In this document: positions 1-6,255 of the stretch, one piece after another
Numbering within the stretch: position 1 is the stretch's first letter
Layout of the letters: each line of letters begins with the position of its first letter
Source of the DNA: a virus
Lineage: Duplodnaviria; Heunggongvirae; Uroviricota; Caudoviricetes
Virus record (IMG/VR): IMGVR_UViG_2778261454_000001
DNA: 6,255 nucleotides
Reading direction: 5' to 3' (one strand)
Program-made: the position numbers and the translations under genes
Notes under the pieces: model-generated
Database searches by the model: none
Seen by the model: the letters and a program-made list of their open reading frames with translations, nothing else
What the model was told of the DNA's origin: nothing

Positions 1-1286
<1,286 letters not shown>

Positions 1287-1294
1287 TAAATATC

Positions 1295-2434: not shown

Positions 2435-2442
2435 TATAAATA
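2435..2442 (+). promoter_or_regulatory. TATAAATA motif (T4-type late-promoter consensus) about 32 nt upstream of ATG 2474
   Basis: Exact octamer in the 40-bp gap between 2433 and 2474. A single occurrence could arise by chance in AT-rich DNA. Confidence 0.25.
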
Positions 2443-2750: not shown

Positions 2751-2792
2751 AAAAAGGCAAGCTACTGATATAGTAGCTTGCCTTTTGTTTTA
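2751..2792. terminator. Bidirectional rho-independent terminator between convergent genes
   Basis: Perfect 11-bp stem GGCAAGCTACT / AGTAGCTTGCC (2756-2766 / 2772-2782) with 5-nt loop, flanked by AAAAA on one side and TTTTGTTTT on the other, so it is followed by a U-tract on either strand. Confidence 0.8.
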
Positions 2793-3239
2793 TTTGTTAG
2801 TTAATGCGGCAATCATTTGATCTACGCGGTTTGGGGTTTGTTTGTACCAATGGGAATCTTTAGCTTGTTTAATTGCTTCAGGATAGTTCTTTTCCTTAAG
2901 TGCTTTTAACATCTTCTTAAACTTCATAGTACCAGCTAAGCCTAATTGGAAAATCATAATTACCATAAAGTCACGCCAATCATTAGGAAGCCAGATATCA
3001 AGAGTATCTAGGTTATGTTGTGCGATCATTATGTCATGGTCTAATAGTTCTTCTGCCTGTACCTCAGTAATACCGTTTGGATAACTTTCACCATGTGTAA
3101 TTAGATGACCATAACCAATCGTTTGATACCCTAATGAATCAGCATATGGATAAAACCTATCATTTCGATAGTACTTCAATGTTGCTTGATACTCTTTAGT
3201 ACCTTCATATTGTTTTAATCTTGTCTTTAAATCACTCAT
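2790..3239 (-). CDS. Endolysin, T4-lysozyme-like (glycoside hydrolase family 24 muramidase)
   Basis: From the internal ATG (rc of 3237-3239) the protein aligns by eye to T4 lysozyme: QYEG…ADSLGYQTIGYGH (Glu/Asp/Thr catalytic positions conserved), MIFQLGLAGTMKF, and HWYKQTPNR versus T4 SRWYNQTPNR. The track ORF starts 20 codons upstream at a GTG, which I consider less likely. No signal peptide or SAR segment, so it should need a holin. Confidence 0.85.
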   Translation of the reverse strand: MSDLKTRLKQYEGTKEYQATLKYYRNDRFYPYADSLGYQTIGYGHLITHGESYPNGITEVQAEELLDHDIMIAQHNLDTLDIWLPNDWRDFMVIMIFQLGLAGTMKFKKMLKALKEKNYPEAIKQAKDSHWYKQTPNRVDQMIAALTNK

Positions 3240-3242
3240 TAA

Positions 3243-3276
3243 TAAATACCTATAGTTAATTTTATATAGGTATTTA
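3243..3276. promoter_or_regulatory. Perfect 12-bp inverted repeat TAAATACCTATA / TATAGGTATTTA with 10-bp spacer, filling the divergent intergenic region
   Basis: Read directly. Each arm ends 3 nt from a start codon (minus ATG at 3237-3239, plus ATG at 3280-3282), so both genes have nearly identical leaders (TATAGGTATTTA-YTW-ATG). Confidence 0.5.
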
Positions 3277-3279
3277 CTT

Positions 3280-3726
3280 ATGGATATACAGATCCCCACG
3301 GAATGGGAATATACAGAAGATTGGGATAAGCGTACTTTGACTAATGGTGATTACGTAGGGTTTGTTTATCTGTTTCAATTTGAGGATGGTAGTACATACA
3401 TCGGTTCAAAACAGATGTATAAACGTGTTAAAGAGATTAAGAAACTTAAACCTACTTCAGAAAGTAACAATTGGGAAAACTATACAAGTAGTTCAAAGAT
3501 AGTTAATCAAAAGATCACAGATGGTGAAAAGTACTGTAAAACTATTCTCTATGCGTTTCCAACTATGCGTGAAACATTACTAGTAGAATCAATTTTGATA
3601 CTACATGAAATGTTGAAACCCAATTGTTTAAATCTCGCAATGATGACGAAGATCAGATCACCAAATGCTAAAGATAAAAAACATCTTTTAGGCATAGTAC
3701 AAGAGCTATTGGAAATATTGAGGTAA
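3280..3726 (+). CDS. GIY-YIG-type nuclease (148 aa): free-standing homing-endonuclease-like or Endo II-like
   Basis: Motifs in GIY-YIG order and spacing: GFVYLF (GIY-like), 8 aa, STYIGSK (YIG), then a conserved Arg (YKRVKE) and later Glu/Asn (LLVESILI…PNCLN). Short, with no obvious extra DNA-binding domain. Confidence 0.55.
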   Translation: MDIQIPTEWEYTEDWDKRTLTNGDYVGFVYLFQFEDGSTYIGSKQMYKRVKEIKKLKPTSESNNWENYTSSSKIVNQKITDGEKYCKTILYAFPTMRETLLVESILILHEMLKPNCLNLAMMTKIRSPNAKDKKHLLGIVQELLEILR

Positions 3727-3730
3727 ATAC

Positions 3731-4309
3731 ATGGCAAGCAGAATAAACGGGATTAGTAGTACTCAGAGTTATATAAAAACTGAAGGTACTAAACTGGGTA
3801 AACTTTTTAATGATGAAATAATTAAACGCTCAAGGCTACTATCCCAAAAAGTACAAGCAGATTTAAATAACTCAGTAGATCGCGGGGCGGTTCCCTTCAC
3901 TCAGAGATCAGTACTGTTTTTTTATAAAAAGAATGGCAAGCAATCAGTAACAGCTACCATTATGATTAAAAATATTCAAGCACAGTATCTATACAATATC
4001 ATTGTTGAACAAAAAACGATTGATAAATTTGTACCTACTAGTATTGCTCGTTTGGATAAGTATGGAAATATTTCAGGATTACGAAAAGGTTTATCAAGTG
4101 GGAAGTACAAGATAGTTAAATCTAAGAATGGTAAAGAACGTTTAATTGATACTACTAAGAAAGATACTAAGAAGAAAACCAAACGTGTAGTTGGTCTAAG
4201 AGAAGAGAAACGCCGTAAGATTATCTATGACTTCTATGGGGAAGTAGATAAAGGTGTAAGAGTAGTAATGAGTGGTATTGAAGGTACATTTAGGATTAGA
4301 AAGAAATGA
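3731..4309 (+). CDS. Hypothetical protein (192 aa) with a strongly basic C-terminal region
   Basis: GAGG (3720-3723) lies 7 nt upstream of ATG 3731. Long ORF with a Lys/Arg-rich C-terminal third (…KSKNGKERLIDTTKKDTKKKTKRVVGLREEKRRK…). Its stop overlaps the next start (ATGA). No family recognised. Confidence 0.6.
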   Translation: MASRINGISSTQSYIKTEGTKLGKLFNDEIIKRSRLLSQKVQADLNNSVDRGAVPFTQRSVLFFYKKNGKQSVTATIMIKNIQAQYLYNIIVEQKTIDKFVPTSIARLDKYGNISGLRKGLSSGKYKIVKSKNGKERLIDTTKKDTKKKTKRVVGLREEKRRKIIYDFYGEVDKGVRVVMSGIEGTFRIRKK

Positions 4310-4617
4310 ATTTTGAACAACATTATGAAGAATTAACAAGTGAAATTAAATTAGGTGGTGTAACACCTAATGGTAATTCAATGCCAATTAATAAAATGTT
4401 TCTTGGTAAAAAGTTTCAAAAGATCATCAAGAATAGTACTCACAATGTGGATAGTTATATGAATGTGATCTTTGAAAAAAAGCAAACCTTTAAAGATGGT
4501 GAAGTACTTGAATGGGAACTACAGGGTGAAGTATTACCCGTGTTTGTAATTGAGTATAAAAAGCTATTCGTAAAAGGTAAACACTTTCATGTATACGCAG
4601 TGGGGATTATTGAATGA
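4306..4617 (+). CDS. Hypothetical protein (103 aa)
   Basis: ATGA overlap with both the upstream and downstream genes, indicating translational coupling. No recognisable motif. Confidence 0.5.
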   Translation: MNFEQHYEELTSEIKLGGVTPNGNSMPINKMFLGKKFQKIIKNSTHNVDSYMNVIFEKKQTFKDGEVLEWELQGEVLPVFVIEYKKLFVKGKHFHVYAVGIIE

Positions 4618-4907
4618 TAGGTGTAATACTAGAACTGCTATCTAAAGGAATGGACTTCTTTATCAAGAGAAAAACCATTCAAGCAGATGTAGAAAAAACA
4701 AATGCCGAAGGGCAAATAGAAACCAACAAAGAAGAGATTGAAAAGGTATCATTCCATTGGCGTAATGCTCTTGGATTTGTGATCACCCTAATCATCCTCT
4801 ATAACTGGATCATAGTACCAGTACTGGATGCTTTTGGTATTGTGGTTATCCAAGTACCATTAGGACAACTACTGCAAGTACTTCTAATCATGGTTGGTGG
4901 TTCATAA
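4614..4907 (+). CDS. Putative holin (97 aa, 2-3 TM; resembles the 3TM GTA-type holin family)
   Basis: GGGGA (4602-4606) lies 7 nt upstream. Hydrophilic N-terminal part then two clear hydrophobic helices (ALGFVITLIILYNWIIVPVL and FGIVVIQVPLGQLLQVLLIMVGG). The HWRNALGF…LYNWIIVP segment matches my recollection of the W-R-P…G-W…Y-N-F signature of that family; not verified. Confidence 0.55.
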   Translation: MIGVILELLSKGMDFFIKRKTIQADVEKTNAEGQIETNKEEIEKVSFHWRNALGFVITLIILYNWIIVPVLDAFGIVVIQVPLGQLLQVLLIMVGGS

Positions 4908-4934
4908 AAAAAGCCCCATTACGGGGCTTTTTTT
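4906..4934. terminator. Bidirectional rho-independent terminator
   Basis: Stem AGCCCC / GGGGCT (4912-4917 / 4923-4928) with 5-nt loop, flanked by an A6 run and a T7 run. It lies between the stop at 4905-4907 (plus) and the stop at 4936-4938 (minus). Confidence 0.8.
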
Positions 4935-4935
4935 G

Positions 4936-6048
4936 TCAGAGATTAAATTCACTAAAGAGCCAATGTTGTTTGCTTAGTGGAATTACAAAGTTTGTCCCTT
5001 TAGGATCTCTACTACGATTTGGTGTTATAATTCTATCAAATGTCGCGTGATATATAGTATCCATTTTTATTCCTTTGTACAGTAATCCATGTACATATCT
5101 ATTCAAAAATCCAGCTATAATATCTGCTATTTGTATACCAGTACTATCTTTAGAATCTTTGAATATCAATTTTGGGGTTTCAATAACTTTGAAATCACAT
5201 GTAGGGATTTTTGGCATAATATCTACATTGACTGTTTTTATCTCAGAGATACAAAAGTCTAATGTGCTAGCAAATTCGCTAGAGGTATCATGTGTTAATA
5301 CGATGTCGGATAGTTTTCTTTTATGAATTTTATTGAGGCGAGCAATCTGGTTATAGAAACTATGTACGTTAGGCAGTAGTTTTATAACATTTCCATTACT
5401 ATCTAAATCTGGAATAGGTACAAACCATTTAATAGCTACATCTGCTGAGTATCTACTTTTTCTGTATTCAAATTCTTGTAAAGTTTTATCGAACATTCTG
5501 CATGTGCCGCCATTATCATCTAGTGGATTACTTTCACTAGAAAAGAATTCTTTCAGGCTCTCAATACATATGTTCAACTTTTCTTCGGATGGGTCTTTAC
5601 ATAACTCAGAGAATGTAGTGAAACAAATTTCTGGTGCAAATGTACTTATTATGTCTACCAATATGTTTCTTACTAACAGCAATTCATTGCTGTCTTCATT
5701 CTCCATTGCAGGTACTATAAGTTGATTTACTATAGAAACTGCTACGTTACACTTTTTATCCATTACTTCACATACTAAAGTGTATTTTTCATCAATTACG
5801 AAATCAACTAATTCGTATACTAGTTCTGGATTTTTAATATAATAATCTTGGGATTTCAGTTCAATTGATTCATCTATGCCGTGTCTTTTCTTCAAGGCAC
5901 GTACAAAACCTTTCATTCTACTAATTTTCCCTTCTGCTACTCCCACGCATGAATGAGTGAAAAGGGGCTGATTAGCAAATCCCATGTCATTTTTTTTATT
6001 AATCAAATCACCTGTGTTACCACTTTCATCTAAGAAATATTCCATCAT
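4936..6048 (-). CDS. DUF3800-like protein (about 370 aa), possible RNase-H-like-fold enzyme
   Basis: N-terminal MMEYFLDESGNTGD and C-terminal GIQIADIIAGFLNR match the DESG and Q-x-A-D signatures I recall for DUF3800. The track ORF begins at a TTG (6058-6060); I place the start at ATG rc(6046-6048), with GGGA about 9 nt upstream on the minus strand. Confidence 0.65.
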   Translation of the reverse strand: MMEYFLDESGNTGDLINKKNDMGFANQPLFTHSCVGVAEGKISRMKGFVRALKKRHGIDESIELKSQDYYIKNPELVYELVDFVIDEKYTLVCEVMDKKCNVAVSIVNQLIVPAMENEDSNELLLVRNILVDIISTFAPEICFTTFSELCKDPSEEKLNICIESLKEFFSSESNPLDDNGGTCRMFDKTLQEFEYRKSRYSADVAIKWFVPIPDLDSNGNVIKLLPNVHSFYNQIARLNKIHKRKLSDIVLTHDTSSEFASTLDFCISEIKTVNVDIMPKIPTCDFKVIETPKLIFKDSKDSTGIQIADIIAGFLNRYVHGLLYKGIKMDTIYHATFDRIITPNRSRDPKGTNFVIPLSKQHWLFSEFNL

Positions 6049-6243
6049 TACCAATCCCAATCTACAGTAGTGTCCAATCCTCTCAGATTCGTATGTTCAG
6101 TACGTGTAGCCTGTAGAACGGTTTCACCAGTGGCGATAGAAACTATATCAAATGACTCTATTTCAGTTTGTCCAAGAGTGATCTTACCCAGCAATAGTGG
6201 ACACGCGGCTAAGTGAGTAAACTCTCAGTCAGAGGTGACTCAC

Positions 6244-6255
6244 ATGACAAAAACA
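6244..6255 (+). CDS. Start of a plus-strand gene running off the window (MTKT…)
   Basis: ATG 6244 is preceded by AGAGGTGA (6231-6238) at typical Shine-Dalgarno spacing. Only 4 codons are visible. Confidence 0.3.

Follow-up and report, generated by a model that had tools for sequence, protein, structure and literature searches.

A conserved palindrome between divergent endolysin and SegE-type genes of a temperate prophage family as a candidate bidirectional variant of the T4-type hairpin switch

The palindrome between two divergent genes

The element considered here is a 34-base palindrome located in the 40-nt gap between two divergent genes in a 6,255-nt stretch of DNA (hereafter the window) from the IMG/VR virus record IMGVR_UViG_2778261454_000001, assigned to Caudoviricetes. 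The minus-strand gene (2790-3239) encodes a 149-aa endolysin (PF00959, E 4e-11), the start codon of which (3239-3237, i.e. CAT at 3237-3239 of the strand shown) was read directly and checked with a script. The protein has 33% identity to the lysozyme encoded by T4 gene e (E 1e-19) and, as judged by its sequence, is a true homologue of T4 lysozyme. The plus-strand gene (3280-3726) starts with the ATG at 3280-3282 and codes for a 148-aa protein containing a SegE-family GIY-YIG catalytic domain (PF19835, E 1.1e-15, above the gathering score; phrog_7363, homing endonuclease). This gene heads a plus-strand block (3280-4907) ending with a holin gene. The original prediction, made from the letters of the window, had called the two products an endolysin and a nuclease; the first name stands, and the second could be specified as a SegE-type GIY-YIG protein.

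Read along the plus strand, the two start codons and the spacer between them consist of CAT, TAA, TAAATACCTATA, GTTAATTTTA, TATAGGTATTTA, CTT and ATG. The left arm TAAATACCTATA (3243-3254) serves as the 5′ arm in the plus-strand RNA; on the complementary strand it becomes the 3′ arm, which includes the Shine-Dalgarno (SD) sequence of the endolysin gene (AGG, 3251-3249). Likewise, the right arm TATAGGTATTTA (3265-3276) is the 3′ arm carrying the SD of the SegE-like mRNA (AGG, 3268-3270), and its complement is the 5′ arm of the endolysin RNA. The arms are separated by an AT-rich loop of 10 nt, GTTAATTTTA (3255-3264), and are complementary at 12 of 12 positions, just as had been claimed for a perfect 12-bp inverted repeat in the 40-bp gap. 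The further claim that each mRNA has the same 3′ arm, with AGG inside and its end 3 nt from its own ATG, also agrees with the sequence. The symmetry axis is at 3259.5, the whole 46-nt segment including the start codons is symmetric, and in the repeat listing the 12-bp repeat extends to 18 nt at 89% as CAT pairs with ATG.

Any perfect inverted repeat of at least 12 bp with a loop of 3-20 nt was found in 1.3% of 300 first-order Markov windows of 6255 nt, and shuffling the 40-nt spacer 200,000 times produced such a repeat in just 67 cases (3.4e-4 of composition-matched spacers); because of these low frequencies the spacer palindrome cannot be put down to chance. What can be said for a chance palindrome in AT-rich DNA is that the 12-bp stem recurs coincidentally in unrelated DNA and that a single arm in front of an ATG is common in viral data. 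The recurring stem, there lengthened to 15 bp and having a loop of 3 nt and a T-run (L005 2642-2674, L006 829-861), lies in a long intergenic region of a viral contig that is AT-rich and exceeds 200 kb, after TATAATATAAATA and with no SegE gene nearby; given this terminator-like context it was rejected as a relative of the palindrome and is probably a coincidental terminator. The pattern of one arm followed by NNN and ATG gave more than 120 viral matches, mostly at unrelated gene starts, and was set aside as uninformative. The frequency of about 3e-4 for the spacer and the conservation, with covariation, in hosts from Yersinia to Escherichia described below speak against chance, which is effectively refuted.

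Folded in silico as a 43-nt RNA, the hairpin has a free energy of -11.5 kcal/mol on the plus strand and -10.7 kcal/mol on the minus strand (z about -3.2). When 81 nt are folded, the free energies reach -15.6 and -16.7 kcal/mol, respectively, and both AGG and AUG are paired, the stronger folding being due to the pairing of the AUG with the complement of the other start codon. The RNA folding of both leaders, which had been proposed as a check, thus gives a stable hairpin on either strand, in which RNA initiated upstream would have its SD and AUG base-paired. The palindrome does not resemble an intrinsic terminator, as it has 2 G-C pairs out of 12 and a T-run on neither side and is absent from the terminator scan. 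No Rfam family was found for it, the sole match, VrrA, being at chance level (17.8 bits vs a gathering score of 50, E 0.99); a sigma-70 promoter scan gave nothing in the spacer, and the exact pattern of the palindrome had no match in GTDB genomes.

Covarying hairpins and the NATAAATA box in related prophages

Searching with either gene (endolysin or SegE-like) gathered 44 family loci, with relatives in Pluralibacter, Scandinavium, Escherichia, Pseudescherichia, Enterobacter, Serratia, Phytobacter, Pseudocitrobacter, Yersinia, Buttiauxella and Kluyvera. The two genes are adjacent in all 44, being divergent in 41 loci and co-directional in three. A hairpin is present in each of the 41 divergent spacers, in 30 distinct versions, so the suggested comparison with related phages supports the element in every divergent locus and reveals a covarying stem. 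While stem positions 1-6 (TAAATA/TATTTA) are invariant across the variants, positions 7-12 vary on both arms together, with several Watson-Crick pair types (CG/TA/GC/AT) and at least 11 arm classes, e.g. CCTATA/TATAGG, CCTTA/TAAGG, CCTTT/AAAGG, CTCCA/TGGAG, TTCC/GGAA and CCTCA/TGAGG, as well as a compensated two-sided insertion, TAAATATTCC/GGAATATTTA. Cognate arms fold with a mean of -9.28 kcal/mol compared to -5.63 kcal/mol for arms swapped between lineages, and none of 20,000 permutations was as good.

The loop is conserved neither in sequence nor in length: the unpaired centre comprises 10 nt here and about 3-18 nt in the relatives, depending on how far the stem extends inwards. The stem takes in the SD, and often the AUG too, in 26 of the 30 variants. 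Across the relatives the hairpin is tied more tightly to the start codon of the SegE-like gene than to that of the endolysin gene; in L218-L221 the endolysin start is shifted, with an SD of its own 16 nt past the stem, and the SegE start still adjoins the stem. Together with the G.U asymmetry described below, this suggests that masking may matter most for the nuclease-to-holin transcript, the comparison not being phylogenetically controlled.

The same arms were also found in an unrelated phage (L002/L004) possessing class I ribonucleotide reductase genes (nrdA, nrdB) and a glutaredoxin gene. Here a hairpin with identical arms and a different loop stands 3 nt before the ATG of a 133-aa SegE-like gene (L002 12027-12464, L004 3909-4346, both on the minus strand), which encodes a protein with 29% identity and lies downstream of the nrdB region. 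The gene has no divergent partner, and the 5′ arm begins with the TAA stop codon of the co-directional gene upstream. Since the hairpin exists there without a divergent partner, it is not merely a by-product of overlapping divergent control regions. The identity of the arms was dropped as proof of a mobile cassette because convergence is plausible, the box (TAAATA) and the SD complement (CC) fixing 8 of the 12 arm bases. Whether by convergence or by common descent, the sequences of these arms show what appears to be the same solution reused. With the inner positions covarying, a hairpin occurring without a divergent gene and a precedent in T4 (see below), the stem itself is shown, as far as sequence comparison can do so, to be maintained by selection.

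Each 5′ arm, read towards the gene on its far side, forms part of an 8-bp motif of the NATAAATA type. The late-promoter box is TATAAATA in T4 and NATAAATA in cyanomyoviruses (PMC2984593). Towards the SegE-like gene, the window contains AATAAATA (3241-3248, plus strand) in the outer half of the 5′ arm; it matches TATAAATA at 7 of 8 positions, and its mismatch sits at -13, where A is tolerated in T4, replacing T in 9 of 50 sites (PMC2988020). Towards the endolysin gene there is a weaker, degenerate box, AGTAAATA (3271-3278, minus strand), with a 6/8 match, so that both 5′ strands of the stem carry a box resembling a late promoter. Of the 30 variants, 24 have an exact ATAAATA core in the SegE-directed arm and 23 in the endolysin-directed arm, the other arms having CTAAATA or GTAAATA, and the endolysin-directed position is an exact TATAAATA in seven. 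The original prediction had placed the promoter-like element in the loop of the endolysin strand, at one mismatch from the T4 late consensus. The loop 8-mers TATATAAA and TATAAAAT are in fact two substitutions away from TATAAATA, and the conserved element is the NATAAATA box of the arm rather than anything in the loop.

The distribution of the box over the prophages is highly uneven. In 12,979 nt of prophage sequence, ATAAATA is absent from coding DNA and occurs four times in the 256 nt of intergenic DNA, each time on the plus strand and 27-47 nt before a plus-strand ATG; none of the other 20 permutations of A5T2 7-mers shows this intergenic-only pattern. The only other exact ATAAATA copies in the window (1286-1292 and 2436-2442) both lie just past a stop codon. 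The second of them belongs to an exact TATAAATA box (2435-2442, plus strand) 32 nt before the ATG at 2474, which is the spacing found between 3248 and 3280. The first belongs to a AATAAATA box (1285-1292, plus strand) that is followed by a GC-rich hairpin at 1295-1322 (-17 kcal/mol), in whose 5′ arm the predicted +1 at 1298 would fall. In the reconstructed 32.6-kb relative IMGVR_UViG_3300029522_000206 (L285+L001), all 10 copies in the structural region are 25-75 nt before the next gene, and in E. coli G3/10 there is one box copy 19 nt before terS. Over 814 kb of family DNA the box occurs 354 times on the sense (structural) strand and 44 times on the antisense strand (8:1); for almost all controls of the same composition this ratio is about 1-2.5:1, the overlapping TAAATAA also having 10:1. 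Nothing resembling a -35 element was found near the box across these 814 kb. The motif is thus an 8-bp TATAAATA-like box at -10 before late genes, with no -35 element, and its distribution identifies NATAAATA as what looks like a genuine strand-specific, intergenic, "-10-only" signal of the whole prophage family. A sigma-70 -10 element was rejected as its identity, as by our own reading the box misfits the A(-11)/T(-7) rule.

GC-rich hairpins 2-4 nt beyond the box were observed at three places, namely at the 1285 box of the window and at positions 18272 and 18799 of the relative, the last one being terminator-like with a T-run. With a +1 set 6 nt past the box, transcription would begin within the 5′ arm of such a hairpin, which suggests a general design with a promoter nested in a hairpin arm that could also serve to bypass terminators. 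The same hairpins, which contain no SD, together with the conservation of the structure, are what favours some other RNA or DNA role for the palindrome, such as a 5′ stabiliser, an RNase III site, a block of antisense transcripts, or a cruciform or structure-specific nuclease target. We regard such a role as very unlikely, given that the stem is positioned over the SD, often together with the AUG, in 26 of 30 variants, that there is no T-tract in either direction, which excludes an intrinsic terminator, and that nothing ties the stem to cleavage.

The box also bears on whether the palindrome is a DNA operator, either for a dimeric regulator, as the original prediction offered as an alternative, or for I-TevI-like autorepression by the nuclease, which would switch both divergent genes together. 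The outer half-sites TAAATA/TATTTA are perfectly dyad-symmetric and invariant, as would suit an operator, and I-TevI is known to repress its own late promoter via an overlapping operator (PMC2988022 sect. 10). The distance between the half-sites, however, varies from 22 to 40 nt in overall hairpin length across the relatives with no helical periodicity, which disfavours the dimeric regulator in particular. Furthermore, single ATAAATA boxes without a partner stand before many other genes, the 148-aa protein has no DNA-binding domain beyond the GIY-YIG fold, and no regulator with a helix-turn-helix motif was found with Pfam and PHROGs among the non-structural open reading frames (ORFs) tested. 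Compact divergent control regions with palindromic operators, for example that of Tn10 tetA/tetR, where the repressor binds operators of fixed geometry, resemble the present locus in having two divergent genes, a very short spacer and dyad symmetry. They differ from it in that here the spacing is variable, the arms covary in the manner of an RNA stem, and the half-site is also a stand-alone motif elsewhere. An operator is therefore a most improbable explanation of the palindrome.

Comparison with T4-type switches

The control of T4 gene e (McPheeters et al. 1986) has been reviewed in PMC3014915, and the masking-hairpin mechanism is experimentally established for T4 e, soc, 49, I-TevI/II/III and segB and for Aeh1 mobE (PMC3014915 sect. 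29; PMC2988022 sect. 12). The e leader taken from the T4 genome, TTTTATAAATACCTTCTATAAATACTTAGGAGGTATTATG, was found to fold at -14.9 kcal/mol with the first TATAAATA in its 5′ arm. The two systems share a homologous gene, an SD and AUG enclosed in the stem, a TATAAATA-type box in the DNA for the 5′ strand and the core ATAAATACC...GGTATT, and their hairpins are of similar stability (-14.9 kcal/mol in T4 vs -11 to -16 kcal/mol here). Unlike the locus in the window, T4 e is unidirectional, comes after early genes of the same orientation and carries another box in its loop, whereas here one palindrome is shared by two divergent genes and the carrier is a temperate prophage of the lambda-J siphovirus type, not a T4 relative. 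Going by the sequences compared, the window would contain the T4 e design duplicated in mirror image before the two gene classes which use it in T4. We had also considered the hairpin as an element of the nuclease gene only, which was dropped when the comparison with T4 e showed that both gene classes use such a hairpin.

The T4-type homing endonuclease hairpins (I-TevI/II/III, segB and Aeh1 mobE; PMC2988022) have in common with the present one a Seg-family GIY-YIG gene, a hairpin masking the SD and a late-promoter box set in such a way that late transcripts lack the 5′ strand (the starts being predicted here), and the arms in L002/L004 even stand in the classic co-directional, free-standing arrangement. 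The difference lies in the gene itself, which encodes a protein of only 148 aa with no DNA-binding domain and is fixed beside the endolysin gene in 44 loci. The protein ends about 40 residues past the catalytic domain, a T4-like homologue being about 60 residues longer, and neither Pfam nor the comparison with homologues revealed a C-terminal DNA-binding domain beyond the GIY-YIG fold. Nor does the gene have the sporadic distribution of a mobile one among the 44 family loci, as it adjoins the endolysin gene in all of them whichever gene is used as the query. Being short, devoid of a DNA-binding domain and fixed in its place, the SegE-type gene appears to have been domesticated as part of the lysis cassette and not to be a mobile homing endonuclease gene.

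With regard to the box, T4 late promoters consist of an 8-bp TATA box spanning -13 to -6, with no -35 element and with an AT-rich segment downstream, and those of Aeh1 have (a/g)C at -13/-12 (PMC2988020). The boxes of the family likewise are 8 bp long, lack a -35 element, have AT-rich DNA downstream, stand just before late or structural genes, and include both A at -13 and a variant resembling the Aeh1 (a/g)C type, here (C/G)TAAATA. All known users of such promoters, in contrast, encode gp55, gp33 and a sliding clamp (PMC2988020, PMC2984593).

Since the T4 rule sets the box at -13 to -6, the +1 for the SegE-like gene is predicted at A3254 on the plus strand, the sixth nucleotide following the box and at the same time the final base of the 5′ arm, and that for the endolysin gene at 3265 on the minus strand, again the last base of its 5′ arm; both would give leaders of 26 nt. 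The transcript from the predicted 3254 start is not significantly structured (-5.0 kcal/mol, z -0.2) and that from the predicted 3265 start is unstructured (-1.4 kcal/mol, z +0.9). In nearly all variants the transcripts from the predicted starts keep 0-5 of the 8-16 stem pairs, the exception being the SegE-sense transcript of one locus (L138, 7 of 18). The 5′-terminal 12 nt of the two predicted transcripts overlap.

It is reasonable to suggest, with moderate confidence, that the palindrome is a two-directional version of the T4 switch in which a late promoter lies inside a hairpin masking the ribosome-binding site. RNA entering the spacer from outside, whether by terminator read-through, by antisense or host- or IS-driven transcription in the lysogen, or by early transcription, would carry both arms and fold at about -11 to -16 kcal/mol, burying the AGG of the downstream gene and partly its AUG. 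The lysozyme and the nuclease-to-holin block would then stay untranslated from such long RNA. Once a factor reading NATAAATA is active, RNA polymerase would start at A3254 (rightward) or 3265 (leftward), and the 26-nt leaders, unable to form the stem, would be translated. As the boxes are face to face, 23 bp apart, the open complexes at them would have to exclude each other; we infer that this mutual exclusion and the 12 shared complementary nucleotides at the 5′ ends may balance the output of the endolysin gene against that of the holin operon. The masking and bypass logic of T4 gene e, which the original prediction had invoked, is supported by the covarying stem, the box in the 5′ arm and the core shared with T4 e; the locus departs from the T4 model in that the box is not in the loop, no gp55 homologue was found and the endolysin box is degenerate.

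The most serious alternative to this switch is that two face-to-face boxes and two ribosome-binding sites are packed in 40 bp and the inverted repeat is their geometric by-product with no regulatory role. Several observations count both for such a by-product and against the proposed switch. TAAATA on one strand is the TATTTA spacer between SD and ATG on the other, CC is the complement of the GG of the other gene, and only the boxes and CC/GG are invariant, so an overlap of box and SD constraints could by itself account for the invariant outer stem with CC/GG. In one subfamily (L140-L148) the hairpin is reduced to ATAAATA-N11-TATTTAT with both SDs outside it. Because of these loci and of L218-L221, with the endolysin SD beyond the stem, masking is not universal in the family, whereas the box pair is. 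The three co-directional loci (including L222 and L225) keep the box before the endolysin gene and have no palindrome.

Further points tell against the switch itself. The endolysin-directed box in the window is degenerate, two mismatches from the consensus, and what points to a promoter function of NATAAATA in the family is its position, strand bias and avoidance only. The strong terminators on both sides of the block, described below, may leave little read-through RNA to mask. Counted over the variants, the SegE-sense strand has 21 G.U pairs and the endolysin-sense strand 5, and in 25 of 29 hairpins the SegE-sense fold is the more stable one; this may be taken as a hint of RNA-level selection, but the lineages giving the asymmetry are related to one another and the SegE-sense strand is rich in G+T. 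With T4 gp55 as the query, phmmer (E<=10) detected no homologue among 3,111 ORF segments of 56 family loci, the sensitivity of a single-sequence search being limited, and no sigma factor or activator was found by Pfam or PHROGs among the tested non-structural ORFs of the 32.6-kb relative.

What a by-product does not account for is that positions 7-12 and beyond, which have no shared promoter or SD role, nevertheless covary, that cognate arms fold far better than swapped ones, that the two-sided insertions TAAATATTCC/GGAATATTTA are compensated, that the full hairpin in L002/L004 has no divergent gene beside it, and that the same architecture is functionally proven in T4 e (PMC3014915). On balance, we hold a mere by-product to be unlikely, and the feature is, as a largely supported conclusion, a conserved bidirectional variant of the known T4-type switch in a temperate prophage family having no recognisable gp55.

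The same 32.6-kb relative contains no replisome clamp genes, and as a gp55 homologue is undetectable, the system is not to be classed among T4 late-transcription units. A bolder suggestion, speculative and distinctly unlikely in our estimate, is that the late and lysis genes of the family are wired to T4-type boxes recognised by the late sigma machinery that a T-even phage brings in on superinfection or, less radically, by an unrecognised non-homologous factor with a gp55-like specificity. If the superinfection version were true, T4 infection would switch on the endolysin, holin and nuclease cassette of the resident prophage, as piggy-back induction or as a suicide defence. The 36% GC content of the element, which is close to that of T4, fits, together with the T4-type lysozyme and the Seg-type nuclease, a history of exchange with T-even phages.

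If the palindrome does act as a bidirectional switch, one 34-bp element would do four jobs, as two promoters and two translational masks, and the two arms of the lysis cassette would be controlled in opposite directions, providing the lysogen with a very economical safeguard against lysing or expressing the nuclease too early. The mechanism, which is known from virulent T4-like phages only, would thereby extend to temperate siphovirus prophages widespread in Enterobacteriaceae, raising the testable question of what reads NATAAATA in a phage with no gp55. The approximately 30 covarying variants would be a natural mutational series for hairpin-controlled translation, and the element could serve synthetic biology as a compact bidirectional part.

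Surrounding genes and prophage context

The endolysin-to-holin block is bracketed by two hairpins located at convergent gene ends and having A- and T-runs on both sides. One, at 2752-2786 on the 3′ side of the endolysin gene, resembles a bidirectional intrinsic terminator with a 16-pair stem followed by a T-run; the other, at 4906-4934 between the holin gene and a gene coding for a DUF3800 protein, was read from the sequence as the bidirectional terminator-like structure A7-GCCCC-ATTAC-GGGGC-T7. Their positions suggest that the former may limit plus-strand read-through from the tail genes and the latter minus-strand read-through, both towards the palindrome. The holin gene itself (4614-4907, plus strand; PF11351) codes for a protein with three transmembrane segments. 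Between the SegE-like gene and the holin gene are two conserved ORFs, 3731-4309 (192 aa) and 4306-4617 (103 aa), for which Pfam gave no match and PHROGs only a weak one to "minor tail protein". Upstream, in the sense of the plus strand, there are tail-tip and spanin-like genes. No tRNAs were found in the window.

Both ends of the window (1-122 and 6179-6252) are formed by IS3 termini with 96-100% identity to E. coli IS3. On the left, the IS3 copy truncates a gene for a 1100-aa lambda-J-like tail-tip protein, the C-terminal part of which is represented by the ORF at 315-1286. The 6 kb between the IS3 ends is the right end of a low-GC (36%) prophage of the lambda-J siphovirus type. When the window was compared by megablast with INPHARED phages, PLSDB plasmids and complete E. 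coli genomes, matches were confined to the IS3 ends and the holin region. An identical protein is encoded on chromosomal contigs, where the cassette adjoins host ybhA/pgl-like genes, and E. coli G3/10 harbors a degraded copy of the same element, inserted in ybhA and independently cut by IS3. The DUF3800 protein (370 aa; 4936-6048, minus strand) is encoded at the prophage end and is also present in the E. coli G3/10 relative, although in another position; its gene may be an accessory or defence-type gene.

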